Notes: a model not told the origin generated them from the sequence alone. Counted from the first letter of the stretch, positions 2,351 through 64,000 are shown. The stretch is 64,000 bases of DNA from an uncultured virus (IMG/VR IMGVR_UViG_3300046336_000146) (IMGVR_UViG_3300046336_000146); one strand, 5' to 3'. Program-made: numbers and translations.

Positions 2351-4264
2351 TTAAAAACCTCTATACCCATTAGTTGTTAAATAGATATTTCCCGATGTCA
2401 AAGATGTTGGTATCAAGAAGTTTACTGCCATATTAGGGTTTGTTTTTAAAGGCTCTTCATATGTAGTAACTGTAGGTTGTAAAGCTGTTGTTTGTAAACG
2501 AATTTGGTCTAGTATTCTATACATTGTAGTACCTGTGTATGCTACAGAAGGTACTACGTTAGCTCCTCCAATTGATAGAGAGAAATTGAATGTAGTCGTC
2601 GAACCAACTGCTGTCACATAGTACACGGTATTTGTAGTTACCCCTGTTCCTGCGGCTAATGCTGTGAATACTACTGCGTCCCCAATTTTTAAATCGTGAG
2701 CTACAGAAGTGGTTGTTAATCCTGTTGTAATTGCAATTGAAGATACTGTCAAAGCTCCATCTAAAAGGTACACTGTTCCTGGGGCTCCTAAAGTATCAGA
2801 TTGAACTTTTAGTGATTTTATATAATTTCTAACTAAAGCTGTACCACTTGCTTGTACTAGAGTCTGCGGAGTAGTTGTAGTTGCAACTGTTTGAAATATA
2901 AAATTAAAATCTAATTCTGATGTTGCGTTCTGTTTTACTAGATTTTGATACCCCGTGGTCATTGACATCCAAGAAGTATCTCCAGCTAATAAAGATGTGT
3001 CAATTGTAGCTATTGTGGTAGGTATTATTCTACCTCCAGTAGGGACTGGATTTGCTGTTGTTGGTGCTGAGTGTGCGATATTCCCACCTACAGCTTGTAC
3101 TCCAGCTAGACCTCCATTTACAGTTGTTGTACCACCTACTTGAGCTATATTAACTGACTGATTGGCAGTTAATGCTCCAATAATGTTGGACCCCGAAGGT
3201 AGTGCTGTATCAAGGCCAACTATTGATGTATTTTGATTACCTATTAAGGTTATTACAGCCGTTCCTGTAACAGCAGCTAATGCGGTTATTCTTGCTTTTA
3301 CAAAACCTGCTACTTCAGATTGAAATATAGATTGTGTAGCCGAAGGTATGTTAGCAGACAATGCACCAGTTCCTACATTTAATAAAGGGGTGCCTCCAAT
3401 TGTAATCCAGGTTGTTCCATCTGATGTTCCTTGTAAGGATAAGGCTCCTGTGTAAGTCCCTGTGACTTGAATAGATAGTCCTATTGCTCCACTTAAAGAT
3501 ATTTCAATTGCAGAACCAGCTGTAGCAATACCAGACGGTACTAAGTTTTGAGTTGTTATGTTCCCAGAAGAAGTTACAGTAATTAAATTTGCTGGTATTG
3601 TAGACTGATTAGATGCAATAACTACAGAAGATGATGAGGCCATAGTTTGTTGGCCTAAAGCAGGGTATTTTGAATTTAAAGCTGATAGTGTTGCTTCAGT
3701 AGCCGCTCCACTAGGCAAAGGCAATGAGGCCGCAGATATTGGCTGAGTAACTCCTGAGCCGTCTACTGGAACTCTATTTGAAACTAGTGCTGGAGTTTTT
3801 GCATCAATACTTTGAATTCCTGTAACAGCAGGTCCGTCAGAAGCTAGTGTAACTCTTTGAGTGTTACTATCTACTGCTCCTAAACCTTTAGTAATGTTTT
3901 GAGAAACTGGTACAGCTCCTGAAACTAGTGCTGGAGTTTTTGCATCAATACTAGTTAATTTTGAATTCGTAATTACTTGGTTAGCTGAAGATGCATCTCC
4001 ACCTGAACCTCCTGTAGAAGAAGAGTTGCTTGAAAAAGTATTTTCTACTAAAAATTGTTTTATTTCCGATTCTGTGTAGAAAGAGTTGTCTTCTTTCTTG
4101 GCATCCGTAAAAGCAAAAGAATACAAAAGTTCTCCAGTTAACCTATCATATAATAAAGCATTATCCGATTCTGTATAATTTAAATTTTCACAAGCATTTT
4201 GCTCTTTGTATTTCTGCCACTCAAAGAACAAATAATTGCCTTTTTTGTATATTTTGTATATCAT
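2351..4264 (-). CDS. Virion structural/fibre-like protein (Thr/Ala/Gly/Ser-rich)
   Basis: 637 aa, beta-rich composition, internal SIDAKTPALVS duplication, located in the structural block. Confidence 0.55.
   Translation of the reverse strand: MIYKIYKKGNYLFFEWQKYKEQNACENLNYTESDNALLYDRLTGELLYSFAFTDAKKEDNSFYTESEIKQFLVENTFSSNSSSTGGSGGDASSANQVITNSKLTSIDAKTPALVSGAVPVSQNITKGLGAVDSNTQRVTLASDGPAVTGIQSIDAKTPALVSNRVPVDGSGVTQPISAASLPLPSGAATEATLSALNSKYPALGQQTMASSSSVVIASNQSTIPANLITVTSSGNITTQNLVPSGIATAGSAIEISLSGAIGLSIQVTGTYTGALSLQGTSDGTTWITIGGTPLLNVGTGALSANIPSATQSIFQSEVAGFVKARITALAAVTGTAVITLIGNQNTSIVGLDTALPSGSNIIGALTANQSVNIAQVGGTTTVNGGLAGVQAVGGNIAHSAPTTANPVPTGGRIIPTTIATIDTSLLAGDTSWMSMTTGYQNLVKQNATSELDFNFIFQTVATTTTPQTLVQASGTALVRNYIKSLKVQSDTLGAPGTVYLLDGALTVSSIAITTGLTTTSVAHDLKIGDAVVFTALAAGTGVTTNTVYYVTAVGSTTTFNFSLSIGGANVVPSVAYTGTTMYRILDQIRLQTTALQPTVTTYEEPLKTNPNMAVNFLIPTSLTSGNIYLTTNGYRGF
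3779..3952. repeat. 33-bp intragenic direct repeat (3779-3811 and 3920-3952)
   Basis: tgaaactagtgctggagtttttgcatcaatact occurs twice and encodes SIDAKTPALVS on the minus strand. Confidence 0.9.
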
Positions 4265-4282
4265 TTTTAAATATTTAATTTA

Positions 4283-4822
4283 TTATAAACAATTTTTACA
4301 GTCAACAAATCTTTTTAATATTTTAGAGGCTTCTTGAAAGTATTTATTAGCATCTATAAAATTTCCATCTTCTGCATTAGCTTTTGCTACTTCTAGTGTG
4401 TATTTTATTTTTATCATAGACTTCATAAAATCTAACTGTACCTTATCAGTACCATATAAAATCAAAACTTTTCCGTATTCTACTTCAAATCTGTCTGTTT
4501 TTAGATAGTATTTTGTTTTTTCTATGTTATCAAAACTAGACTTTACTTTTATTGTATAGATTCCGTCAGGTAGGTCTGTGTAGTTCTCCCCTGAACAGTC
4601 TCCTTGTAAACAACTAAGTCCTAAATTATGAGAGTTAAAGACATTCCTCTTATCTTTTACAAAAATAAAATTCTTAGGTGTACTTGAACCCGGGATAGTT
4701 ATTTGGATGTAAGAAGGAAGTTCATTTGCATATACCCAATCTGAATAGTCATCTACAATTAAATTAGTAGGTTCATTTGAATATATATTAAACAATATGT
4801 TTATGTTTCCTATTGTACTCAT
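4283..4822 (-). CDS. Putative virion structural protein
   Basis: 179 aa, position in structural block, LPDGIYTIK motif. Confidence 0.45.
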   Translation of the reverse strand: MSTIGNINILFNIYSNEPTNLIVDDYSDWVYANELPSYIQITIPGSSTPKNFIFVKDKRNVFNSHNLGLSCLQGDCSGENYTDLPDGIYTIKVKSSFDNIEKTKYYLKTDRFEVEYGKVLILYGTDKVQLDFMKSMIKIKYTLEVAKANAEDGNFIDANKYFQEASKILKRFVDCKNCL

Positions 4823-33112: not shown

Positions 33113-33649
33113 ATGGGATATTCAACTAGTAGAGAATTAAATGAATTTATAAAAATGTTGGTAGATGCGGATTCAAGTATTGTAACTACAGGTGAGAGAA
33201 TCAAGAATTGTCCAAAAAGAGGTTTTCAATGTTACTGTGATGGAAGTTGTGCTACTAAAAACACGTTTCCAGCAGAGGGAGCTGTTAAGCGCAGAGATGA
33301 TTTATTAAAAGGCGGTTTTAATATTGTAGATAGTCCTAAAGAACCTGTTAAAGAGGCTTATAAGGAGACAGAAGGAAAACTTTTTTATGAATTAGATTGG
33401 GGCTTTATTACGCAGATGGCTGAAAGAATGGCATCTAATAAAAAAGAAGGTAAGTACGAATTATTCAATTGGAAAAAGCCAATGACTATAGAAGGTATAG
33501 AGCACTTAAAGCAGGCCACTCTAAGACACTTGTTGGAAATATTGCAAGGGAGATATGAAGACGATGGCAGAGAGTTTGGACACCTAGAGTCCCTGGCGGA
33601 TAACGTTATGATGATTAATTACCAACTAAAAAATAATAAAAACAAATAA
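33113..33649 (+). CDS. dATP/dGTP diphosphohydrolase-like (DUF5664) domain protein
   Basis: KYELFNWKK..LRHL..E.GHL pattern in the C-terminal half. Confidence 0.55.
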   Translation: MGYSTSRELNEFIKMLVDADSSIVTTGERIKNCPKRGFQCYCDGSCATKNTFPAEGAVKRRDDLLKGGFNIVDSPKEPVKEAYKETEGKLFYELDWGFITQMAERMASNKKEGKYELFNWKKPMTIEGIEHLKQATLRHLLEILQGRYEDDGREFGHLESLADNVMMINYQLKNNKNK

Positions 33650-34014: not shown

Positions 34015-34141
34015 CAACACACGCTACAACGGATTTGGGCAATTGGCTTAATGGAAAGTTGGTTTTGTATTTGGGATGATTTGGCAAATCCGAAAATAGG
34101 GCTTAATTTAGTCCCAAACCCGCTGTAGCGCGGGAACGTTA
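34015..34141 (+). repeat. attC-like hairpin site 1 (array 1)
   Basis: CAAC-aca-cgctacaacggatttggg...cccaaacccgctgtagcg-cgggaac-GTTA, 127 bp. Confidence 0.85.
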
Positions 34142-34189
34142 CAGGATATTGTACCAAAACTGTACGTTGAAAAAGAACTCAACAGAAAA

Positions 34190-34765
34190 ATGGAATACGT
34201 AATTATAGCAGTTTTATTAATTGTCTTATTTTTAGTAACTTTGCGGAAAGAAGAAATAACTAAAACAAAAGTTGTTTACATATCAAAACAAGATAATAAC
34301 AATACTATGTCTTATAGTCCAACAACAATAGCGAACTACTTCATACAAGAAAAAGCCAAATTTGGCAAGTTGACTTCAATGAAGTTGATAAAATTAGTTT
34401 ATATTTCTTATGCTTGGTATATTACCTTGAAAGGGAAAGAAAACCCCCTAACAAATGAAAAAGCCCAAGCTTGGAAATATGGACCAGTTTTTCCATCATT
34501 GTATAAAGTAATAAAGAGTGAGGGAACAGTTGAAGTTGAAAAGCCATTGCCCAATAATAGAGAGGAAGTTATTACGAGAGAAGATGCTAACTTTTTAGAT
34601 AAGATGTGGGATTTGTATGGTAAATATAACGGCGTTGAGTTGAGTGCTATGACACATGCTGAGAAAACCCCTTGGAGAGAGGTTTACTGTAGAAATTGTA
34701 ATTCAGAAATACCAGATGATTTGATAATTAGCCACTATACACCAAAACTAAAATCCGCTTCGTAA
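34190..34765 (+). CDS. Panacea (DUF4065/SocA-like) antitoxin; alternative start at 34307
   Basis: IANYFI..LTSMKLIKLVY..AWKYGPV..LSAMTH..TPW motifs. Confidence 0.85.
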   Translation: MEYVIIAVLLIVLFLVTLRKEEITKTKVVYISKQDNNNTMSYSPTTIANYFIQEKAKFGKLTSMKLIKLVYISYAWYITLKGKENPLTNEKAQAWKYGPVFPSLYKVIKSEGTVEVEKPLPNNREEVITREDANFLDKMWDLYGKYNGVELSAMTHAEKTPWREVYCRNCNSEIPDDLIISHYTPKLKSAS

Positions 34766-34769
34766 TTGA

Positions 34770-35135
34770 TTGATTGATTTAAATAGACTCCCAAACACCA
34801 TTCCTGATAATTTTAGAGACGCAGATATTGATGAAGCAGTTTCCGATATTACGTCGTGGAATAAAGATATTTCTCCCGAAGAAGAAAGGTACAGAGAAAA
34901 TACAGTTTTAAGAGATAATTTAGCAAAGGTTTTTACTATTGTAATAATATTTTGGTTAGTCTCTGTTATTCTAATCCTCGTTGGAAATGACTTAAAATAT
35001 AATTTAAGTGACACTGTTTTGGTAACTCTTTTAACCACTACAACAATACAAGTTTTAGGGTTAGTTTATATTATATTAAAAGACTTATTCCCAGGCGGAA
35101 AAGAGAATCCAAAAAACAACAGCACCGCACAATAA
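34770..35135 (+). CDS. Two-TM membrane protein, candidate cognate toxin
   Basis: Immediately downstream of the Panacea gene within the same cassette; two hydrophobic helices. Confidence 0.55.
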   Translation: MIDLNRLPNTIPDNFRDADIDEAVSDITSWNKDISPEEERYRENTVLRDNLAKVFTIVIIFWLVSVILILVGNDLKYNLSDTVLVTLLTTTTIQVLGLVYIILKDLFPGGKENPKNNSTAQ

Positions 35136-35145
35136 CAACATCCTG

Positions 35146-35272
35146 TAACACACGCTACAAGCAATTGCCACAATAGGCTTTCAGAAAAATTGTCTTGTAC
35201 TTGTAAAAATTAGTAATAAACAGAAATATTAATCCGCCTTAATTGGCAACCGCGTGTAGCGCGGGAACGTTG
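35146..35272 (+). repeat. attC-like hairpin site 2 (array 1)
   Basis: TAAC-aca-cgctacaagcaattgcca...tggcaaccgcgtgtagcg-cgggaac-GTTG, 127 bp. Confidence 0.85.
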
Positions 35273-35342
35273 TACCTCATTGTAACAAAACCGCAGAAGC
35301 GAAGACCAAAGAGAATGCAACGTTACTAACAAAATAACAGAA

Positions 35343-35534
35343 ATGAGTTTAAAAGAAAAATTCCAAGCAGTATTTACTTGGAAACTAAAAAAGCCGACAT
35401 TTGAAGTTGGTAAGAGCACAACACCAAAAGAGAAGCTTCAACAGGTTCAGGAATTATGTTTGCAACAAAAAAGAATTTTTAAGGAAGCATTAAGTGGACA
35501 AACATTTTACTATTCTCACTTAAAAACTTTGTAA
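35343..35534 (+). CDS. Cassette ORF, possibly truncated
   Basis: 63 aa; overlaps the convergent minus-strand ORF. Confidence 0.35.
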   Translation: MSLKEKFQAVFTWKLKKPTFEVGKSTTPKEKLQQVQELCLQQKRIFKEALSGQTFYYSHLKTL

Positions 35535-35994
35535 TATAATATTCATAATCTTTCTCGTGAAAGAAATATGAACTTTGATTAAAATTATTTTGGCTTGAAT
35601 CTAAATCCATTCTTGCCTTTAACTCTAAAATTAAACTATGTTTGGAATCTATATTGCGGGTATTTTCTGTGTACTTGTCTTCCATTATACTGGAGCGTCT
35701 CTCGAAATCCCTTTTCACAGAAGTGAATGTCAAAAATGCAGTCAAACCAAGTGCTGTTGTAAAAACAATAAGAATTAAATTTGTGTCACTCTCTTGTTGT
35801 CTGATATACATTTCTTCTTTAAACTGACGTTCTTTAACTTGAGCATTTGTCAAGGGCAGATTAGATTTAAGTCTTATGTTTGCTTCTTTTAGGGTCTCAT
35901 ACTTATATTCAAGATTACTGACTCTGTAATACATAAAAATTATTAATAAAGAAAAAATTATTGTAAGTGAAACGGGGTAGAAGTTGTTTTTCAT
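35479..35994 (-). CDS. Cassette membrane protein (likely start at 35994, MKNNFYPV)
   Basis: Two TM segments; the longer ORF-track start lies at the edge of the repeat. Confidence 0.5.
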   Translation of the reverse strand: MKNNFYPVSLTIIFSLLIIFMYYRVSNLEYKYETLKEANIRLKSNLPLTNAQVKERQFKEEMYIRQQESDTNLILIVFTTALGLTAFLTFTSVKRDFERRSSIMEDKYTENTRNIDSKHSLILELKARMDLDSSQNNFNQSSYFFHEKDYEYYITKFLSENSKMFVHLMLP

Positions 35995-36079
35995 AAAGTA
36001 AAAATTAAAAACCAAAAGTAATAAAAATAAAGTTAAATTAGCGATGGAAAAGCGTAGCCGAAAAGAAAAGCCGAACCAC

Positions 36080-36205
36080 CAACACACGCTACAAGCAAGT
36101 TGGGCAAAGGTGTTGAATTAAAAAACGGTTTTGTACTTTCCGAAAAAAGTAACAACAGAAAATAAATAATTATTAACCCAACCTGCGTGTAGCGCGGGAA
36201 CGTTA
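36080..36205 (+). repeat. attC-like hairpin site 3 (array 1)
   Basis: CAAC-aca-cgctacaagcaagttggg...cccaacctgcgtgtagcg-cgggaac-GTTA, 126 bp. Confidence 0.85.
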
Positions 36206-36259
36206 TATGATAGCTTAACTAAAGAAAGAGCTAAAGTAGAAGCGAGAAAATATATAACA

Positions 36260-36562
36260 ATGGAGTATAATATACCCGAATGGGAAAGAAAAGCTTACGA
36301 AGAAAAAGCAGAAAAATTTGAAAAAGACCAAAGTATTACCTTTACAATAAGTAAAGATAAAAATGGTATTGACAGACCAACAGAGGAGGAGAGAAAAACA
36401 ATAATCGACAAATTAGAGCCTATAAGACAAAAAGCCGAAAATGAAATAGCAGAAATATTAAATAAAATTACCAAGGAACATTCTATTTATATTTGGACTA
36501 ACTGTAAAGAAAAAATAGAATTAACTTTTATCTATCCGAGTTCTAATTTAGTTTATAATTGA
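36260..36562 (+). CDS. Cassette hypothetical protein
   Basis: 100 aa between sites 3 and 4. Confidence 0.6.
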   Translation: MEYNIPEWERKAYEEKAEKFEKDQSITFTISKDKNGIDRPTEEERKTIIDKLEPIRQKAENEIAEILNKITKEHSIYIWTNCKEKIELTFIYPSSNLVYN

Positions 36563-36565
36563 AAG

Positions 36566-36802
36566 TTATTTAAAGATTTCATTCATAAGACTTAATCTAT
36601 ATTCTTCGGGTTTAAACTTACCGTCTAGAGCATAATCTTTGGCATTTTCATTATACAGTTTATATCTATTATTTAACAAGTCGTTATTAAATTCGTTTAG
36701 ATATTTTTGTGTTTCAGGTACAACCTTTTTAACAAATCTAACACCATCTCTAATAGTGTATAACTCTTCATTAACAATTAAAAGTGCATCTTCATAAGTC
36801 AT
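36566..36802 (-). CDS. Cassette hypothetical protein (likely start 36802, MTYEDALL)
   Basis: Convergent with 36260-36562, stop codons 3 bp apart. Confidence 0.5.
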   Translation of the reverse strand: MTYEDALLIVNEELYTIRDGVRFVKKVVPETQKYLNEFNNDLLNNRYKLYNENAKDYALDGKFKPEEYRLSLMNEIFK

Positions 36803-36902
36803 AATTAAAGTTTTAAAGTGAGAACCAAAAGTAAGAAATAAATTTATAAATTGCGATGGAAAAGTAAAATGTGTAAAAACAGAAGCATAAAAAGCCATCA
36901 TA

Positions 36903-37027
36903 TAACACACGCTACAAGCAAGTTGTGGCAAAGAGCTAAAATAAAAACGGTCTTGTACTTGCCGAAAAAAGTAACAACAGAAAATAAATAATTATTAACC
37001 CAACCTGCGTGTAGCGCGGGAACGTTG
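36903..37027 (+). repeat. attC-like hairpin site 4 (array 1)
   Basis: Near-copy of site 3 (last ~60 bp identical), 125 bp. Confidence 0.85.
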
Positions 37028-57814: not shown

Positions 57815-58099
57815 ATGTATAAGCTACCAGTTGATTACAGAAAGTTGCATTACACTGAAAGAAAAAATGTCAGATTACAATACATAGAAGAACAAAAAGG
57901 ATTGTGTTATTATTGTGGGTGTAATCTAAAAGAGGAAGCACCAAAACATATTAAGGATAAAAAAATTAATTGGAAGTTATTTCCTGAAAACTTTTTACAG
58001 TATCCAATTCATTTACAGCATAACCATAATACTGGAATGACTGAAGGCGCAGTTCACAACTATTGTAATGCGGTTATGTGGCAATACGATGGTCGTTAG
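57815..58099 (+). CDS. HNH / endonuclease VII-like protein; terminal cassette remnant
   Basis: CYYC..HLQHNH..GAVHNYCN; stop codon abuts the first attC-like site. Confidence 0.6.
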   Translation: MYKLPVDYRKLHYTERKNVRLQYIEEQKGLCYYCGCNLKEEAPKHIKDKKINWKLFPENFLQYPIHLQHNHNTGMTEGAVHNYCNAVMWQYDGR

Positions 58100-58108
58100 T
58101 CTTGCTAC

Positions 58109-58236
58109 TAACGTTCCTCTAGTGCAGCTCGCTAGGGAGAAGCAAGCCGTTTGACTTCGGATACAAAACAATTATAACAAGTACAAACTGATTTATAAAT
58201 TGAGCCAAATCTAGCAATAGCATATATGCGCTGTTA
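58109..58236 (-). repeat. attC-like site A (array 2, degenerate stem)
   Basis: Plus strand TAACgtt...gctag...ctagc...ctGTTA, 128 bp. Confidence 0.7.
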
Positions 58237-58270
58237 GGGCAAGTACGGAATTTTAATAACTGAATATCTT

Positions 58271-58655
58271 ATGGAAAGAACTGAAGTCTTAGAAAAATTA
58301 AAAGAAGAATATAGAAAATTATCAAAAATATCAGACCAACAGTTTGAGGAAAGGTTCTCAACTTCTAAAAATGAACAAAGATGGTATGATGATTTATATA
58401 AAGACTACCATACTATAAAAATAAGGATAGATTTGTTATTAGAATTATTAACATAATAATTGAGATATGAGTAATACAATTAAAACACAAAATTATGGGA
58501 CTATTGAAATAATCACGATAGACCCGCACACAGGAGAAGGGACTAATGATTTAAGATTAGAAATTGATTCAAAATACTGTTCTGCTTGGATTCATTTGCA
58601 AGAAGATGAAGTTATGAAATTACGAGATGAGCTTAACGAATGGCTCGACTTATGA
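58271..58655 (+). other. Two-gene cassette (58271-58456, 58467-58655)
   Basis: Bounded by gttagggcaagtac / gtatttgccctaac. Confidence 0.7.
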
Positions 58656-58677
58656 AAAATAATAGTAGTATTTGCCC

Positions 58678-58805
58678 TAACGCCCTATGGCTATAAGCAG
58701 TTGCCAATAAAACTGCCTAAACTTCAAATTAATAAAGAATGAAAACAAGTACAAAACGGTCTTTAAATTTAAGACAAAAGTGGCAATTGCTTATAACCAC
58801 TGTTA
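58678..58805 (-). repeat. attC-like site B
   Basis: TAAC..ggctataagcagttgcca...tggcaattgcttataacc..GTTA, 128 bp. Confidence 0.85.
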
Positions 58806-59122
58806 TGAGTAGTGCGGTGTTGTTAAAAGCAAATCACATTTTATTTTGGTGGTATTATAAACGAGTTCCTAAATTCTTTCATAAATGGACTATTTTAAAA
58901 AGTATCACACTACTTAAACAAAATTACGAACACGCAGAATTTAGGTATGAAGGATTAAATGAAGTTGTTAGAAACGCTTCAAAAAGAGAAAGAGAAATGA
59001 CTACTGAAATTTCTAATTTAAGACTAAAATTAATGGGAGTTTCGCAAGATGTTATTGACCCTTTAAATGAAATTTTTGGAACGAATTTAAAAGGAAAATC
59101 GACTTTTGAACGAGATAATTAG
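58739..59122 (+). CDS. Cassette hypothetical protein starting inside site B
   Basis: 127 aa; cassette ends gttatgagtagtgc / gcattactcataac. Confidence 0.55.
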   Translation: MKTSTKRSLNLRQKWQLLITTVMSSAVLLKANHILFWWYYKRVPKFFHKWTILKSITLLKQNYEHAEFRYEGLNEVVRNASKREREMTTEISNLRLKLMGVSQDVIDPLNEIFGTNLKGKSTFERDN

Positions 59123-59131
59123 CATTACTCA

Positions 59132-59260
59132 TAACGTTAAGGCATATACGCAGTTACGGATTAAGTAAATCCTAATCATCTAATTAAACAACAATAAAAC
59201 CAAGTACACACAAATATTATAAATCAAGACTATTGCCGTAATTGCTTATATGCAGTGTTA
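59132..59260 (-). repeat. attC-like site C
   Basis: TAAC..gcatatacgcagttacgg...ccgtaattgcttatatgc..GTTA, 129 bp. Confidence 0.85.
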
Positions 59261-59284
59261 GCAGTAGTTATTTTAAACACAATT

Positions 59285-59560
59285 ATGAAAAGAACACAAG
59301 TAAAAAAAGCAACCGTACACGTATTTGATATGGAGGAACTAGCGTGTAAAATAATGGGAATTGATTATGATGAAATTAATGCAGATACAGAAGTCATAGA
59401 AGAAGAATTATATAATCAATTTGAAATAGATTTAGAGAATTTTAGTGAAATAGTAAACAGATTACTTCCGCTTATTGATATTGGAGAAAGTCCGTTAACA
59501 AAACAGAAATTTAAAGGTTTTTCAACTGGTCAAATGTGGTTAGCGAAGATTCCTGTATAA
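59285..59560 (+). CDS. Cassette hypothetical protein (ATG at 59285)
   Basis: Cassette ends gttagcagtagttat / ataattactgctaac. Confidence 0.65.
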   Translation: MKRTQVKKATVHVFDMEELACKIMGIDYDEINADTEVIEEELYNQFEIDLENFSEIVNRLLPLIDIGESPLTKQKFKGFSTGQMWLAKIPV

Positions 59561-59567
59561 TTACTGC

Positions 59568-59693
59568 TAACGTTGAGCATAACTCTAGTTACGGACTAAA
59601 CAAGCCGAAACATTCAGATTAAAAACCGTATCACTGATACAAAAACATTTATAAATTCAAGACCGAAACCGTAATTAGTGTTATGCATTGTTA
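59568..59693 (-). repeat. attC-like site D
   Basis: TAAC..gcataactctagttacgg...ccgtaattagtgttatgc..GTTA, 126 bp. Confidence 0.85.
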
Positions 59694-59721
59694 GGGTTAG
59701 GTTTTTTTTAAACTCAAGATT

Positions 59722-60099
59722 ATGAAAGGTTCAGAAAAAGCACATTTATTTAAAACAGGACAATATGGAAGATTGTATATTACAAGTAGTTCCCACGCAA
59801 GAGGAAACACATTAAGAATACAAGTGCTTCCCGAAGGAGAAATAGCAATTCCAAATGGAAGTGGAAATACTTGCTTAAACAAAGATGCAGTAATTGTTTA
59901 TGATGTTGTATCAGGACAAAGAGGATGGACAGAAGCTTACGGATGGTTGCACGAAGGAAAATGGCAAGATGATTTTAGAAAACTTGTTATAGATGCTGAA
60001 AAAAAGATTGAATATTTAAGAAAACAATCAGAAAAATCGAAAGTAGAAAAACAAAAACAGGAAGAAGAAAAATTGTCTAAATTATTAAGCGACTATTAG
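59722..60099 (+). CDS. Cassette hypothetical protein
   Basis: 125 aa; cassette ends gttagggttaggttt / aaacttaaccctaac. Confidence 0.65.
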   Translation: MKGSEKAHLFKTGQYGRLYITSSSHARGNTLRIQVLPEGEIAIPNGSGNTCLNKDAVIVYDVVSGQRGWTEAYGWLHEGKWQDDFRKLVIDAEKKIEYLRKQSEKSKVEKQKQEEEKLSKLLSDY

Positions 60100-60127
60100 T
60101 ATGCGGTATGTTTGGCAAACTTAACCC

Positions 60128-60217
60128 TAACGTTTTGCGTATATACGAGGTACGCCAAACGATAAATTTCAAATTATAAACAAATGCTTCTAGGCGTATC
60201 TTGTATATACGCTGTTA
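60128..60217 (-). repeat. attC-like site E
   Basis: TAAC..gcgtatatacgaggtacgcc...ggcgtatcttgtatatacgc.GTTA, 90 bp. Confidence 0.85.
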
Positions 60218-60312
60218 GCAGTAGTACGGTTTTAAACCACAAATGCTCAATCGGAGAACTGAACCTTTTTCTTTTCTTTTTTGAGCGATGGCAAAAATAT
60301 TAAAATAAAATT

Positions 60313-61086
60313 ATGACAATAGATTTAAGATACGGTGATACAATAGAACAAATGAAATTGATACCTGATAAAAGTATTGATGCTATTATTTGTGATTTAC
60401 CTTATGGTACAACTGCTTGTAAATGGGACACGATAATACCATTTACTAACCTTTGGGAACAATACGAAAGAATAATTAAAGATAACGGAGCAATAGTATT
60501 AACCGCTTCACAACCATTTACAAGTGCTTTGGTTATGAGCAACCCTAAATTATTTAAGTATGAATGGATATGGGAGAAAAATGTTGCAAGTAATTTTATG
60601 CAGTATAAATTTATGGTTGCAAAAAAACACGAAAACGTATTGATATTTGCAAAAGGTAAAACAAAATATAATCCAATTATGGAAGATAAATCAGAACTAT
60701 CTATACAGCGAATGAAATATAAGTTTAAAGATAGAAAGCAATCAGAACACTATAAAACGGATATTTCAGAAGACAGGTCAGATAGGCAAGAAAAAATGTA
60801 CCCAACAAGTGTAAAGAAGTTTAACAGAGAAGTTGGATTACATCCCACGCAAAAGCCAATATCAATGATGGAATATTTTGTGTTGACTTATACTGATGAA
60901 AACGATACAATACTTGACAATACTTTTGGAAGTTGTACTACGGGAATAGCTTGTATAAATACTAATAGGAACTTTATCGGTATTGAGAATAATATGGATT
61001 ATTTTAATATTTCTTTAAAGAGGGTGGAAGAAAAAAGAAAAGAAAAAGAATTTAACGTAGTAACTTCATTCGGAGATGGAATGTAG
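60313..61086 (+). CDS. DNA N6-adenine/N4-cytosine methyltransferase (beta class), cassette-borne
   Basis: DLPYG, HPTQKP, LDNTFGSCTTG; cassette ends gttagcagtagtac / gtattactgctaac. Confidence 0.9.
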   Translation: MTIDLRYGDTIEQMKLIPDKSIDAIICDLPYGTTACKWDTIIPFTNLWEQYERIIKDNGAIVLTASQPFTSALVMSNPKLFKYEWIWEKNVASNFMQYKFMVAKKHENVLIFAKGKTKYNPIMEDKSELSIQRMKYKFKDRKQSEHYKTDISEDRSDRQEKMYPTSVKKFNREVGLHPTQKPISMMEYFVLTYTDENDTILDNTFGSCTTGIACINTNRNFIGIENNMDYFNISLKRVEEKRKEKEFNVVTSFGDGM

Positions 61087-61149
61087 TATTACTGCTAACT
61101 ACTATATGTATTACATGCATTAAAACCTTAATAAAATAAATACTTTACA
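61086..61149 (-). other. attI-like site
   Basis: Last cassette end (TAAC at 61096-61099) is not followed by a hairpin but by the 50-bp leader of the integrase. Confidence 0.55.
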
Positions 61150-61977
61150 ATGAAAACTTCTGAACACAAGGGTAACTTCATTCAGGAAATGAAAAGAAGA
61201 GGTTACAGAGAAAATAGTATAAAAAACTATAGTAGTTGCATAGATGTATTTTTATCAACTATTAAAAAAGATCATCCTAAAAATATCAATGAACAAGATA
61301 TAAAACATTTTTTAGGTAATTGTATAAGAGCTAATACTCAGAGAAATTATCAATCGGCTATAAAACTGTTTTACGAAATATGTTTTAATCAAAAACAAAA
61401 GTTTAAGAATATCCCATATACAAAAAAAGAGAAAAAACTTCCTATTATTTTATCAGTGGACGAAATTCAAAAAATGTTTGATGTTTGTGAGAATAAAAAG
61501 CATAAATTAATTTTGGCTCTGTTGTACTCTTGTTCTTTAAGAGTTTCAGAAGTTATAGATTTAAAGTGGGAAAATATTGATAGGAGTAGAAGAGTGATTT
61601 ATATTTTAGATGCTAAGGGAGGTAAAAATAGACAAGTTGGATTGAACGATACGCTGATAAAGTTAATGGAAGAGTATTACAGAGCCTATAAAACTAGAAT
61701 TTTTATTTTTGGAGGGCAATTTTCTGAACAATATTCGTCAAGAAGTGTGTTGCAAGTGGTAAAGCAACTTTCAATAAAAGCGGGGATTGACAAAAGAACC
61801 TATACTCACTTAATAAGACACTGTTCTGCAAGTCATATGGTAGAGAATGGAATCGATATCAATTTAATCCAACGGATTTTGGGGCATCAAAATGTTAAAA
61901 CTACGTTAATTTACACTCATATTTCACACAATATAATAAGTAAAGTACAGTCACCTTTAGAAAAGATATCAATTTAA
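61150..61977 (+). CDS. Tyrosine recombinase, integron-integrase-like
   Basis: N-terminal SAM-like domain (RRGYRENSIKNY); catalytic R (LRVSE), K (KGGK), HLIRH, LGH and Y (TLIY). Confidence 0.9.
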   Translation: MKTSEHKGNFIQEMKRRGYRENSIKNYSSCIDVFLSTIKKDHPKNINEQDIKHFLGNCIRANTQRNYQSAIKLFYEICFNQKQKFKNIPYTKKEKKLPIILSVDEIQKMFDVCENKKHKLILALLYSCSLRVSEVIDLKWENIDRSRRVIYILDAKGGKNRQVGLNDTLIKLMEEYYRAYKTRIFIFGGQFSEQYSSRSVLQVVKQLSIKAGIDKRTYTHLIRHCSASHMVENGIDINLIQRILGHQNVKTTLIYTHISHNIISKVQSPLEKISI

Positions 61978-63002: not shown

Positions 63003-63111
63003 TCAACAAAATTAAAAAGTATTAACCTTACCAACAGGGTAAAAAACAAATAAAAGCCTCAAAAGGTTGTTAGTAAATAAAATGAAAGCAACCTTCTTTG
63101 AACAGAGAAAG

Positions 63112-64000
63112 ATGAAAAGAATAGGAAACATATTTGATAAAGTAGTCAGCTTAGAGAATTTAAAAATCGCCGATAAAAAAGCTAAAAGAGGAAAAGCAAA
63201 TCAAAAAGAAATAAGAGAGTATTTTAAAAACAGAGAGGCTAATTTAGAAACACTTCATAACAGTTTAATTAATGGAGAATTTAAAACGTCCAACTATTCT
63301 GTTTTTAAAGTATATGAGCCAAAAGAAAGAATAATATCAAAACTACCTTTCTTCCCCGACAGAATAATTCAATGGGGTCTTTATTTACAGTTAGAAAATA
63401 TATTTACATCTACATTTACTGTGGACACTTATAGTGCAATAAAAGGAAGAGGTATTCATAAATTATCAAATAATTTAATTAAGTCTTTAAAAGATTTAAA
63501 TAAAACAACGTATTGTTTAAAGTTAGATATAAAACAATTTTATCCATCTATAGACAATAGTATCCTAAAAAACAAGATAAGGCGTAAAATAAAATGTAAA
63601 AAGACACTATATTTATTAGATAATATTATAGATTCCGCAAAAGGCTTACCTCTTGGTAATTTATTAAGTCAGCTGTTTGCTAATGTTTATCTTAATGAGT
63701 TAGACCATTACATAAAACAAGATTTAAAAGCAAAGTATTATTTTAGGTATTGTGATGACATTTGTATTTTATCAAATAATAAACAGGAGTTACATAGTAC
63801 ATTACATATTTTAAAGAGTAAATTAGCAGATATAAAATTAGAAGTTAAGGGTAACTATCAGATTTTTCCTGTAGAAAAAAGAGGAATTGATATTGTAGGG
63901 TACAAACATTTCCATACACATAAATTGTTAAGAAAATCAATTAAAAAGAATTATATTAAAAACAAGAATAAAAAGACACATTATTCGTGGTTAAAACATT
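63112..64000 (+). CDS. DGR reverse transcriptase (runs off the right edge)
   Basis: MKRIGNIF..EPKERII..PDRIIQ..GRGIH..LDIKQFYPSI..GLPLGNLLSQ..YFRYCDD (YCDD at 63748-63759). Confidence 0.95.
   Translation, partial: MKRIGNIFDKVVSLENLKIADKKAKRGKANQKEIREYFKNREANLETLHNSLINGEFKTSNYSVFKVYEPKERIISKLPFFPDRIIQWGLYLQLENIFTSTFTVDTYSAIKGRGIHKLSNNLIKSLKDLNKTTYCLKLDIKQFYPSIDNSILKNKIRRKIKCKKTLYLLDNIIDSAKGLPLGNLLSQLFANVYLNELDHYIKQDLKAKYYFRYCDDICILSNNKQELHSTLHILKSKLADIKLEVKGNYQIFPVEKRGIDIVGYKHFHTHKLLRKSIKKNYIKNKNKKTHYSWLKH

Follow-up and report, generated by a model that had tools for sequence, protein, structure and literature searches.

A phage-borne, integron-like cassette platform whose site arms carry a fixed G.T/C.A pair that probably marks the folded strand

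The window (the whole 64,000-nucleotide stretch of uncultured viral DNA analyzed here), a contig that looks like a phage of Flavobacteriia type, bears a platform for gene capture that resembles an integron. We put at roughly 0.6 the probability that this is a phage-borne system with a recombinase of the Xer/IntI clade, in which a wobble at position 11 of the cassette ends probably serves as a strand mark on the folded recombination site. Upstream of an attI-like site lies a row of mobile units, each made up of an imperfect-palindrome element of 40-200 nt and the small gene behind it. The features of array 2, which adjoins the recombinase gene, and of array 1, which is oriented opposite to it, are as follows:

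58113..58232, + strand: hairpin element E1, heading unit 1 (120 nt), which begins directly after the flank ...CTAAC
58233..58681, + strand: cassette body 1, two small ORFs; G-arm 58233-58246 (G 58243), A-arm 58668-58681 (T 58671)
58682..58801, + strand: hairpin element E2 (120 nt), inner stem of ~18 bp with G/A asymmetry
58802..59135, + strand: cassette body 2, one ORF; position 11 is G 58812 and T 59125
59136..59256, + strand: hairpin element E3 (121 nt)
59257..59571, + strand: cassette body 3, one ORF; position 11 is G 59267 and T 59561
59572..59689, + strand: hairpin element E4 (118 nt)
59690..60131, + strand: cassette body 4, one ORF; position 11 is G 59700 and T 60121
60132..60213, + strand: hairpin element E5 (82 nt), whose + strand folds a 20-bp inner stem with two G.T pairs
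60214..61099, + strand: cassette body 5, N6/N4 DNA methyltransferase (60313-61086); position 11 is G 60224 and T 61089
61100..61149, + strand: attI-like site, a conserved TAnTATATGTAT motif after the last TAAC, ~50 nt 5' of the recombinase start codon
61150..61977, + strand: tyrosine recombinase of 275 aa, Xer/IntI clade, without the IntI-specific insertion
34019..34137, + strand: array 1, element A
34138..35149, + strand: array 1, cassette body 1, a SocA/Panacea-domain ORF and a 121-aa ORF; position 11 is A 34148 and C 35139
35150..35268, + strand: array 1, element B
35269..36083, + strand: array 1, cassette body 2, whose right end is paired with the sequence from 37024 on (G/A, with a one-base indel)
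36084..36201, + strand: array 1, element C
36202..36906, + strand: array 1, cassette body 3; position 11 is A 36212 and C 36896
36907..37023, + strand: array 1, element D; the partner arm of body 2 comes next, from 37024

Between 58233 and 61099, each of the five units has a left end (GTTA...) that agrees in 13-14/15 positions with the reverse complement of its own right end (...TAAC), and all five mispair at position 11, with G on the left and T on the right of the + strand. The two intact units of array 1 (bodies 1 and 3) repeat the pattern in mirror orientation, with A on the left and C on the right, and the end pair formed by body 2 and the sequence from 37024 onward, an eighth that again shows G/A, is what the insertion of a unit behind element C would leave. 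The first-pass annotation had claimed that cassettes pair their own ends over 14-15 bp and always mismatch at position 11; this is true for 7/7 cassettes of the window, the difference being purine/purine. Its further statement that this pairing exceeds the 7-bp R box of classical attC sites is right as to the length of the arms, but the classical baseline is itself longer than 7 bp (8-11 bp in Vibrio); similarly, the arms are private to their cassettes within the window but not world-wide, 32/204 distinct arms recurring in other contexts, some with different cargo. One pair without a mismatch, matched at 14/14 positions (window 30520/34239), lies in A-rich coding sequence and was treated as chance.

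A larger set, made up of the window and 160 related loci (1.68 Mb), was searched for GTT...AAC pairs seeded on positions 1-10 and 12-14 only, leaving position 11 free to vary. Among 167 distinct and otherwise perfect pairs, position 11 was G/A in 127, A/G in 17, matched in 18 and of another type in 5, such that 144/167 carried one of the two purine differences; the reversed-sequence control gave 16 pairs, of which 14 were matched and 2 other, with 0 G/A and 0 A/G. The 23 remaining pairs of the real set (18 matched, 5 other) are about the chance yield of the control (16). Tabulated across related arrays, as the first-pass annotation had proposed, position 11 is thus not random (144/167 as against 0/16), and the feature is common to loci whose recombinases share 50-85% identity and to cultured phages whose recombinases are 30-35% identical. 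That the mismatch is due to chance, or is a neutral relic of the origin of the repeats without present function, we regard as extremely improbable: nothing beyond the small sample in the window speaks for it, and against it stand 144 pairs versus 0 in the control, together with the retention of the feature over this whole range of recombinases. The pattern has some imperfect members: P12002L has one clean arm pair only (14 bp, G/A at position 11), its second pair having T/A at both 10 and 11, and the last unit of Freya_10 (3794-4097) is without a clean G-arm. Outside the window, matches were limited to the elements, the methyltransferase and the attI/recombinase region; the bodies of cassettes 1 and 2 and of array-1 body 3 had no match in the 160 related loci.

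Pairing by position (n=220) ranges from 0.95 to 1.0 over positions 1-14, except for 0.84 at position 10, and falls to 0.70 at position 15 and ~0.25 further out; the conserved parts of the arm are positions 1-4 and 8-12, about one helical turn apart. At the variable positions the ends covary, with 204/204 distinct arms pairing with their partners at positions 5-10 and 12-14. The elements, 106 of which are distinct, are all bounded by (T)AAC and GTT(A) and have an inner stem with a median of 19 bp around an asymmetric center, the central loop measuring ~5-8 nt on one side versus 1-4 nt on the other (typically about 5 versus 1-3). The inner-arm profile is approximately that of the outer arm shifted by 4 nt, and the order at either junction of an element is A-arm, short spacer, G-arm.

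We interpret the 14-15-bp inverted repeats as the two halves of a predicted outer recombinase-binding arm of an attC-like hairpin site. The G-arm (GTTA nnn GCA G T) lies directly after the element and the A-arm (GTTA nnn GCA A T when reverse-complemented) on the other side of the gene, so placed that the halves could meet solely in a circular unit or in a single-strand fold. Once joined, they would close a two-arm hairpin composed of outer arm, asymmetric central loop, inner stem of ~19 bp and variable loop, in which position 11 would always be G.T on one strand and C.A on its complement, with 3-4 Watson-Crick pairs beyond. Some of the same observations might instead describe ordinary double-stranded core sites, built from A-type and G-type half-sites around a spacer and comparable to the XerC/XerD arms of dif or of pdif flanks; the one-base difference between the half-sites would order strand exchange, with no need of folding. 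The arm-spacer-arm order at both element junctions and an enzyme nearest to the Xer recombinases agree with such sites, but they would leave the covariation of cassette ends and of element halves (204 arms; stems with a median of 19 bp) unexplained, the variable positions show no relation between the two arms of a junction, and the spacers are unequal (~5-8 nt versus 1-4 nt), all of which makes double-stranded recombination improbable. Nor are the elements MITE-like insertions into older palindromes, an idea that we rejected because the paired ends bracket the gene and not the element; the sole element-body-element bracketing is as predicted by unit insertion.

The asymmetry between strands is not confined to position 11. 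Inner stems of the 106 elements contain 268 mismatches, 140 of them G/A and 7 A/G, and a G/A lies 15 nt from GTTA in 79/106 elements and 16 nt from it in 13 more; the asymmetry of the inner stem is thus frequent but not invariant, its place at index 15 being taken by a normal pair in 13/106 elements and by another pair type in 8, with 6 more unaligned. Low in the inner stem, at index 6-7, the G.T strand of about a third of elements also has a C.A (34 C/T mismatches). Relative to the recombinase gene, 109 pairs upstream of it are G-distal/A-proximal and 2 are reversed, both of the latter belonging to the inverted array 1 of the window. When sites were reconstituted and folded with DNA parameters, the G.T strand was the more stable in 101/103 (median -3.8 kcal/mol), and the circular form was more stable than the arrayed form in 103/103 (median -8.7 kcal/mol). 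Conserved single-base bulges were not found in these folds, which instead showed 1x1 mismatches or wobbles and a bulge of ~5 nt.

The position-11 mismatch would best be read as a strand-selection determinant in a folded single strand, a reading that fits the data because position 11 is invariant and 3-4 flanking pairs keep the mismatch inside the helix, because the inner stem has the same polarity and that polarity is fixed relative to both the attI-like site and the recombinase gene, and because the G.T strand has a median stability advantage of 3.8 kcal/mol. The recombinase would use a single folded strand, and most probably it is the G.T strand that the contrast of wobble and mismatch leaves as the sole good substrate. 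In terms of the integron layout, the G.T strand would correspond to the bottom strand, its arm lying 5' of the crossover, and a one-strand substrate would fix the direction of insertion, as extrahelical bases do in classical attC sites. The comparison with extrahelical bases, which had been drawn in the first-pass annotation, is one of function only: the feature here is a wobble or mismatch within the helix, not a bulged base. In the arrayed state, the outer arm pairs solely at TAAC/GTTA, and the folded-strand model leaves the route of excision unexplained.

Alternatively, the same mismatch could be a mark by which each recombinase monomer recognizes the site or is positioned on it, for example as a flipped base, as a kink or as a ruler that lies one helical turn away from the point of cleavage. 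Binding to the folded site, or catalysis there, would depend on this mark, but the strand would be chosen through the asymmetric central loop. The presence of the same feature at the same distance in both arms is consistent with such a mark, as are its position inside the helix (3-4 further pairs), the spacing of the conserved arm positions (1-4 and 8-12, ~one helical turn), the strong asymmetry of the central loop (~5 nt versus 1-3 nt) and the fact that private pairing in a Vibrio control stops at 8-11 bp, where the mark sits here. However, the mark is absent from the inner arm in at least 13/106 elements, and what is G.T on one strand is C.A on the other, such that recognition would itself be strand-specific and overlap with strand selection; we consider a pure recognition mark unlikely.

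In addition, the G.T strand is the sense strand, bearing the longest ORF in 126/144 cassettes as well as the recombinase gene, and selection on RNA folds could therefore produce the same polarity. On this account, the stems would act in transcripts of the G.T strand, where G.U pairs are tolerated or used, for example in processing or stabilizing the transcript through pairing of its 5' and 3' ends, and the polarity of the DNA would simply follow transcription; the arms do lie in the 5' leader and just past the stop codon. Tolerance of wobbles, however, would scatter them rather than fix one position in 144 pairs, and it is the C.A strand that encodes the genes of array-1 body 1, the flanking phage genes and, in 12/144 cassettes, the longest ORF. 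There were 0 intrinsic terminators (or terminator-like sites) and 0 Rfam families in the window, and the unit borders, the attI-like site and the linkage to a recombinase all indicate a DNA site, so we give an RNA function little credence. A scan for sigma-70-like promoters in the window, which is blind to Bacteroidota promoters, returned 15 versus 17.0 +/- 3.9 expected.

Cassettes also occur as discrete units in different genomic contexts. From 32 recurring arms we chose, by eye and for equal length, five shared-cassette comparisons, one of which (Y) was scorable on one side only; in 2 of the other 4, the same cassette was found in different neighbor orders among related contigs, traveling with its left hairpin element. 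In these two informative pairs, the bodies were 100% and 99.9% identical and the left elements 100% and 96.7%, but the right elements only 59% and 50%; the remaining two comparisons (Z and V) were indecisive (66% versus 62%; 62% versus 72%). Isolates of the cultured Polaribacter phage Freya differ from Freya_10 by 902 bp (Freya_8) and 304 bp (Freya_9), exactly one unit in either case, and by a block of ~4.9 kb (Freya_1), all bounded by AAC, with aligning flanks that are 100% identical, and the differences in Freya_9 and Freya_1 abut the attI-like site. Metagenome contigs part from the window exactly at 59568, 59694, 60128, 60213 and 61099, and the copy of E4 in one related contig (85-88% identical) has different flanks on both sides, homology stopping at TAAC and GTTAG. 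Because shuffled cassettes carry their left element and Freya isolates differ by AAC-bordered units, the mobile unit is the hairpin element plus the gene body, with a crossover at TAAC|G, and not the GTTA...TAAC stretch alone. Of the earlier proposal that units were mobilized as circles, the movement of discrete units has held up by comparison of shuffled cassettes and Freya isolates, but not the circular joint: no circular or deletion joints were present in the metagenome contigs of 4/24 runs, contig data being uninformative on circles.

The recombinase is nearest to the Xer recombinases, although its profile scores fall below the equivalog cut-offs (XerA 197 versus 220, XerD 166 versus 330, XerC 153 versus 335), and it is not a XerC, XerD or XerA equivalog acting on one dif site, its gene sitting in a phage beside a cassette array. 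Against the integron-integrase profile TIGR02249 it scores 165 bits, in two stretches, versus a cut-off of 265, and alignment to VchIntIA (2a3v) places query 175-196 opposite chain residues 179-242, so that ~40 residues of the IntI insertion are missing. Among 103 recombinase loci, 66/85 distinct junction rows have the attI-like motif, TAAC followed by 3-4 nt and TATATGTA, ~50 nt before the start codon. Its position beside the recombinase gene, together with the differences of Freya_9 and Freya_1 from Freya_10 at that junction, agrees with a primary (attI) site that takes up cassettes, and a contig of metagenome run X9 passes from 61099 into another element. In the loci examined, the recombinase gene always adjoins the cassette array and follows the cassette genes in the same orientation; in the classical layout, the integrase gene diverges from the array and the cassettes are transcribed away from an attI promoter. 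Recombinase matches in genome bins are on contigs not shown to be chromosomal. Homologues in the Polaribacter phages Leef and Freya were taken as a sign of temperate potential in the part of Bartlau et al. that we draw on, and the enzyme might still have a second role as a lysogeny integrase besides cassette recombination.

The resemblance to classical integrons, as far as these are described in the portions used of PMC8946536 and PMC2727003, extends to a recombinase gene beside a primary site and an array of small, mostly one-gene units, to imperfect unit palindromes with AAC/GTT ends, two paired arms, an unpaired center and a variable loop, and to a crossover at the AAC/GTT triplet, with the outer arm split between the ends of the unit. 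Sites of the attC type are known by an imperfect palindrome with R''/L''/L'/R' boxes and AAC...GTT, and the 106 elements conform to this in their (T)AAC and GTT(A) borders, their inner stems and their asymmetric centers; discrete units with a crossover at a conserved triplet are found in 2/4 shared cassettes and in the 902-bp and 304-bp differences of Freya. Classical cassettes recombine through the folded bottom strand alone, with resolution by replication; for a similar use of one strand here, the evidence is indirect, namely the strand asymmetry of 101/103 sites. The system here differs in that its carrier is a phage, in that the enzyme is below the integron-integrase cut-off and lacks the IntI-specific insertion in the catalytic domain, which a section of PMC8138268 calls essential for integron function, and in that each element stands upstream of its gene, with the genes pointing toward a co-oriented downstream recombinase gene. 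The outer arm, moreover, is 14-15 bp long with a fixed G.T/C.A, as against 8-11 bp without one in the single Vibrio array that served as control, and strand asymmetry comes from wobble and mismatch pairs, whereas in classical sites it comes from bulged (extrahelical) bases in the L box, which direct the choice of strand. This control was a chromosomal-integron fragment in a Vibrio phage record (12/14 cassettes scorable), in which the own-end pairing of 8-11 bp was uninterrupted in 11/12 scorable cassettes; among 14 named genomes searched for a classical integron, none was above the cut-off.

Clusters of attC sites without an integrase (CALINs) have been reported from virulent phages, including Polaribacter phage P12002L (Qi et al., 2023, PMC9892861, in the sections drawn on here). 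The methyltransferase region of P12002L belongs to the array family of the window, whose methyltransferase cassette has ~72% DNA identity to it, and the attC1 primer sequence given in a part of PMC9892861 fits, by eye, an element of this kind in L027; the same parts of that paper list attC1 as the one site of six without verified recombination by IntI1. They differ from the present account in describing no recombinase, attI-like site, extended private arm or fixed mismatch. P12002L has no close homologue of the window recombinase, the best match in the phage collection searched being ~35% identical and in other phages. A published description of this phage cassette system was not found in our literature search.

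Recombination by XerCD on folded single-stranded phage DNA occurs at the attP hairpin of CTX-phi. Gene modules bounded by recombinase arms are also described, in the portion of PMC7399989 used here, for Xer-flanked pdif modules. As in both, a Xer-type enzyme would act on a two-arm hairpin that mimics a core site, and arm-bounded gene modules travel with their arms; unlike both, which use host XerC/XerD and conserved dif-like arms, the present system has one phage-encoded enzyme, cassette-specific arms, and a dedicated attI-like site with its array.

The cargo is led by DNA modification: 23/119 cassette ORFs match a DNA methyltransferase family, and others are Mom, a TET-associated glycosyltransferase, two PAPS-reductase-like proteins, Lar and a Panacea-domain protein. 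Whether phages of Bacteroidota more broadly hold a widespread and undescribed integron-like capture platform, with a compact Xer-like recombinase without the IntI insertion and an obligatory G.T/C.A at position 11 of each arm that takes over from extrahelical bases the coding of strand and direction, is a question on which we are evenly divided. Since the system is present in the cultured phages Leef and Freya, and Freya isolates already differ by single units, the hypothesis is directly testable. If it is true, folded-strand cassette capture would be independent of the IntI insertion, and one wobble pair per arm, a very simple structural mark, could set both strand and direction; the "integrases" that have been read as evidence of lysogeny in lytic phages of flavobacteria would be cassette integrases, and integron finders keyed to IntI would miss such platforms or label them as integrase-less attC clusters. 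The cargo would then be rich in DNA-modification and anti-restriction genes, which suggests a phage-side store of counter-defense genes, mirroring the bacterial integrons that are reported, in the part of that study cited here, to serve as stores of defense genes (10.1101/2024.07.02.601686).

Each of the five gene units in array 2 (58233-61099) starts with GTTA and finishes with TAAC, and its left end, compared with its own right end in reverse complement, agrees at 13-14 of 15 positions. Position 11 is mismatched in all five, with G on the left and T on the right of the plus strand. The two intact units of array 1 are arranged as mirror images (plus-strand bases A and C), and the claim of the first-pass annotation that cassettes pair their own ends around a fixed mismatch at position 11 is borne out in both sets. 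An eighth end pair, with a one-base indel, joins the right end of body 35269-36083 to sequence from 37024 and spans element C, body 3 and element D, which is the pattern that insertion of a unit into an existing site leaves behind. Hereafter, a body is a gene unit GTTA...TAAC, an element the imperfect palindrome between units, and an arm the 14-15-bp end repeat, termed G-arm or A-arm after the base at position 11; the two complementary strands are the G.T and the C.A strand.

Arrays and neighboring features in the window
33113-33649: ORF just before array 1, dATP/dGTP diphosphohydrolase N-terminal domain
34-37 kb: array 1, inverted
36084-36201: element C of array 1
36907-37023: element D of array 1
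57815-58112 region: ORF just before array 2, weak endonuclease VII match
58233-61099: array 2, five gene units
61150-61977, plus strand: recombinase gene
63067-63999: reverse transcriptase gene (RVT_1 match), 1.1 kb downstream of the recombinase gene, running off the window end

Overall, the window resembles an entire tailed-phage genome whose structural module occupies 1-23 kb of the minus strand and whose early genes are encoded on the plus strand. Its reverse transcriptase bears a weak likeness to group II intron RT/maturases, scoring 99 bits where the cut-off is 300, and at the DNA level is 65-68% identical to RT genes of crAss-like phages.

Relatives were gathered via the neighboring recombinase, a 17-base motif of an array-1 element and phage records, with no selection on position 11, and the comparison set, 1.68 Mb in total, comprised the window and 160 further loci. 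Pairs were defined as GTT...AAC ends agreeing at positions 4-10 and 12-14, position 11 being left free. Position 11 was G/A in 127 of the 167 distinct pairs, A/G in 17, matched in 18 and otherwise in 5, whereas reversed sequences yielded 16 pairs (14 matched, 2 other, none G/A or A/G); because the control yields a similar number, the non-purine cases lie at about chance level. Permitting one extra mismatch added 76 purine/purine pairs, against 15 in the control. Across 220 pairs, pairing is 0.95-1.0 over positions 1-14 save for 0.84 at position 10, where the exceptions are all T/A, and drops to 0.70 at position 15 and about 0.25 further out; the loose arm consensus is GTTA nnn G C A [G or A] T. 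The mismatch thus keeps its position in the larger set rather than wandering at random, and the end-repeat observation is real, highly non-random and general.

Identical 14-16-nt arms (window 60214-60229 and 58233-58246, and comparison loci L020, L015 and L086) occur on cassettes of differing length and unrelated contents, and metagenome contigs diverge from the window at 60229, directly after such a shared arm; apparently the arms come from a restricted pool or are exchanged with elements. "Empty" 61-bp units lacking a gene, whose two arms pair over about 17 bp and carry the position-11 G/A, were found in comparison locus L028 (3733-3793) and at the end of the Freya_10 record, just before record position 1. 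The flank of array 2 ends in an 18-nt mini-palindrome, GTTAGT...ACTAAC (58095-58112), resembling an empty pair of arms.

Consecutive units are separated by 106 distinct elements of 40-197 nt (median 117 nt). With the G-bearing arm placed on the right, they carry G(T/G)T directly after the initial TAAC and T before the final GTTA, with an inner stem of median 19 bp and an unpaired center of about 5 bases on the 5' side versus 1-3 on the 3' side. Sites reconstituted in silico by joining a unit right end, an element and a unit left end fold as two-arm hairpins (14-15-bp outer arm, asymmetric center, inner stem, large loop), and no conserved single-base bulge appeared in these folds. Inner-stem mismatches are likewise polar, with 140 of 268 being G/A and 7 A/G, and the inner-arm base profile approximates that of the outer arm shifted by four bases. 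Of the 106 elements, 79 have the inner G/A at a distance of 15 nt from GTTA and another 13 at 16 nt; not every inner arm bears the mark, as 13 elements have an ordinary pair there. Nor is the G.T strand flawless, because 34 C/T mismatches of opposite sign occur at index 6-7, near the base of the inner stem.

That the units are mobile is well supported by sequence comparison, although the mobile unit is an element plus a body and not, as first proposed, the GTTA...TAAC stretch alone. Among 204 distinct arms, 32 occur in more than one neighbor context, and five recurring arms, chosen by eye and of equal length, were compared. In two comparisons the bodies share 100% and 99.9% identity and the left elements 100% and 96.7%, as opposed to 59% and 50% for the right elements, and the switch in flanking sequence falls exactly between TAAC and G (TAAC^G); two others were uninformative and one was scorable on one side only. 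With body and left element conserved and the right element divergent, the mobile unit is therefore element plus body (in G-left orientation), which agrees with arrays carrying an element at their distal end but lacking one next to the recombinase, and the crossover lies at TAAC^G or within it. Among cultured phages, Polaribacter phage Leef_1 and the Freya isolates likewise carry arrays of this kind, immediately upstream of their annotated integrases; these enzymes are 30-35% identical to that of the window, and the arms show the position-11 G/A. Freya_8 equals Freya_10 minus positions 1-902 (one element and one body), with the same final 319 bases; in Freya_9, 304 bp bounded by one AAC and that of the attI-like site are missing; and in Freya_1, where a block of about 4.9 kb is missing, the upstream A-arm is joined straight to that site. 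Contigs from 4 of 24 listed freshwater metagenome runs part from the window exactly at 59568, 59694, 60128, 60213 and 61099, one running from 61099 into another element as expected of an extra unit at the attI-like site; they may come from related phages and not the window phage itself. These contigs contained no circular junction. Danklef phages, from another Polaribacter host, contain about 37% of the Freya_10 array region in three pieces at 97% identity, which may reflect cassette sharing between phage species.

Array 2 closes with TAAC and then TACTATATGTAT, followed 50 nt later by a tyrosine recombinase of 275 aa. TAAC, 3-4 bases and (A/T)TATGT make up this attI-like junction in 66 of 85 distinct rows from 103 loci whose recombinase is at least 50% identical (the other 19 are mostly variants), and homology among relatives begins at its TAAC. 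The recombinase falls below the curated cut-offs for XerA (197 vs 220), XerD and XerC; its integron integrase score, split over two stretches, is 165 against a cut-off of 265. When aligned to the Vibrio integron integrase structure, the window enzyme has 20 residues against 63, and the IntI-specific insertion, called essential for integron function (PMC8138268), is absent. In this, and in having a site without a conserved single-base bulge, the locus differs from a classical integron. A second tyrosine recombinase gene (326 aa) lies at 3460-4440 of comparison locus L085, within the array region upstream of the platform recombinase gene.

Arm polarity relative to the recombinase gene is fixed: the G-arm is distal and the A-arm proximal, upstream of the gene, in 109 of 144 perfect pairs, and the reverse occurs in 2, both in the window's inverted array 1 (4 others lie downstream of or overlap the gene, and 29 are in loci without it). 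Stems acting at the RNA level could yield the same polarity, since 126 of 144 cassettes have their gene on the G.T strand, against 12 with it on the C.A strand and 6 unclear cases. However, wobble tolerance would leave no single fixed position, the array 1 genes and flanking phage genes sit on the C.A strand, and the window showed no terminator-like site or known RNA family. The interpretation in the first-pass annotation is supported in part, and the best reading of the sequence pattern is that the mismatch probably marks a strand, as that annotation had suggested. Folding energies computed with DNA parameters favor the G.T strand over its complement in 101 of 103 reconstituted sites (median difference -3.8 kcal/mol) and the circular over the arrayed form in all 103 (median -8.7). 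The arrayed outer arm pairs only via TAAC/GTTA, so excision would have to rely either on a far weaker site or on the two ends of a unit pairing with each other over a long range. With the recombinase gene drawn pointing away from the array, as in integron maps, the G.T strand is the bottom strand, and its outer arm is 5' of the crossover, as is usual for tyrosine recombinases; by analogy, the G.T strand would be the one cut.

In classical integrons the bottom strand recombines about a thousand-fold better, a choice set mainly by an extrahelical base (PMC8946536, PMC2727003). A pair that forms a wobble on one strand but a mismatch on its complement, present in both arms, could be a simple substitute for that mark. 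Three or four further pairs keep the position-11 pair within the helix, whereas private pairing ends at 8-11 bp in 11 of 12 scored cassettes of a Vibrio integron control, which argues that the position-11 pair itself is used. The pairing does exceed this control, but the classical baseline is itself longer than the commonly cited 7-bp box of the first-pass annotation. The control, a chromosomal-integron fragment in a Vibrio phage record (L169, 28054-41427), reaches 8-11 bp of private pairing, and in 3 of its 12 pairs one mismatch is followed by 2-3 more pairs.

The longest ORFs of the 144 perfect cassettes (at least 60 aa, deduplicated, named phage records excluded) numbered 119, of which 36 had a Pfam match at E <= 1e-4. 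DNA methyltransferases account for 23 of the 36 (13 N6/N4, with two rows overlapping one gene, 5 C5, 3 Dam and 2 MT-A70), among other cargo that includes Mom, a TET-associated glycosyltransferase, two PAPS-reductase-like proteins, Lar and a Panacea-domain protein; the last cassette of the window is an N6/N4 methyltransferase.

Members of this family have been recorded before. Qi et al. (2023; PMC9892861, accessible sections) reported integrase-less attC clusters in virulent phages, Polaribacter phage P12002L among them; the attC region of P12002L belongs to the same family as the window arrays. The attC1 primer given there matches, by eye, a genuine element in comparison locus L027, and attC1 is the sole site of six without verified IntI1 recombination; in contrast to the loci described here, the P12002L account, in those sections, has no cognate recombinase, attI-like site, extended arm or fixed mismatch. 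Bartlau et al. (2021; PMC8776804) took the integrases of Leef and Freya to indicate temperate potential, with cassettes unmentioned in the accessible text. No description of the cassette system was found in the full-text literature, subscription journals being largely outside its coverage. By the integrase criterion the locus is not an integron; it works like one, with a new kind of structural mark in addition.
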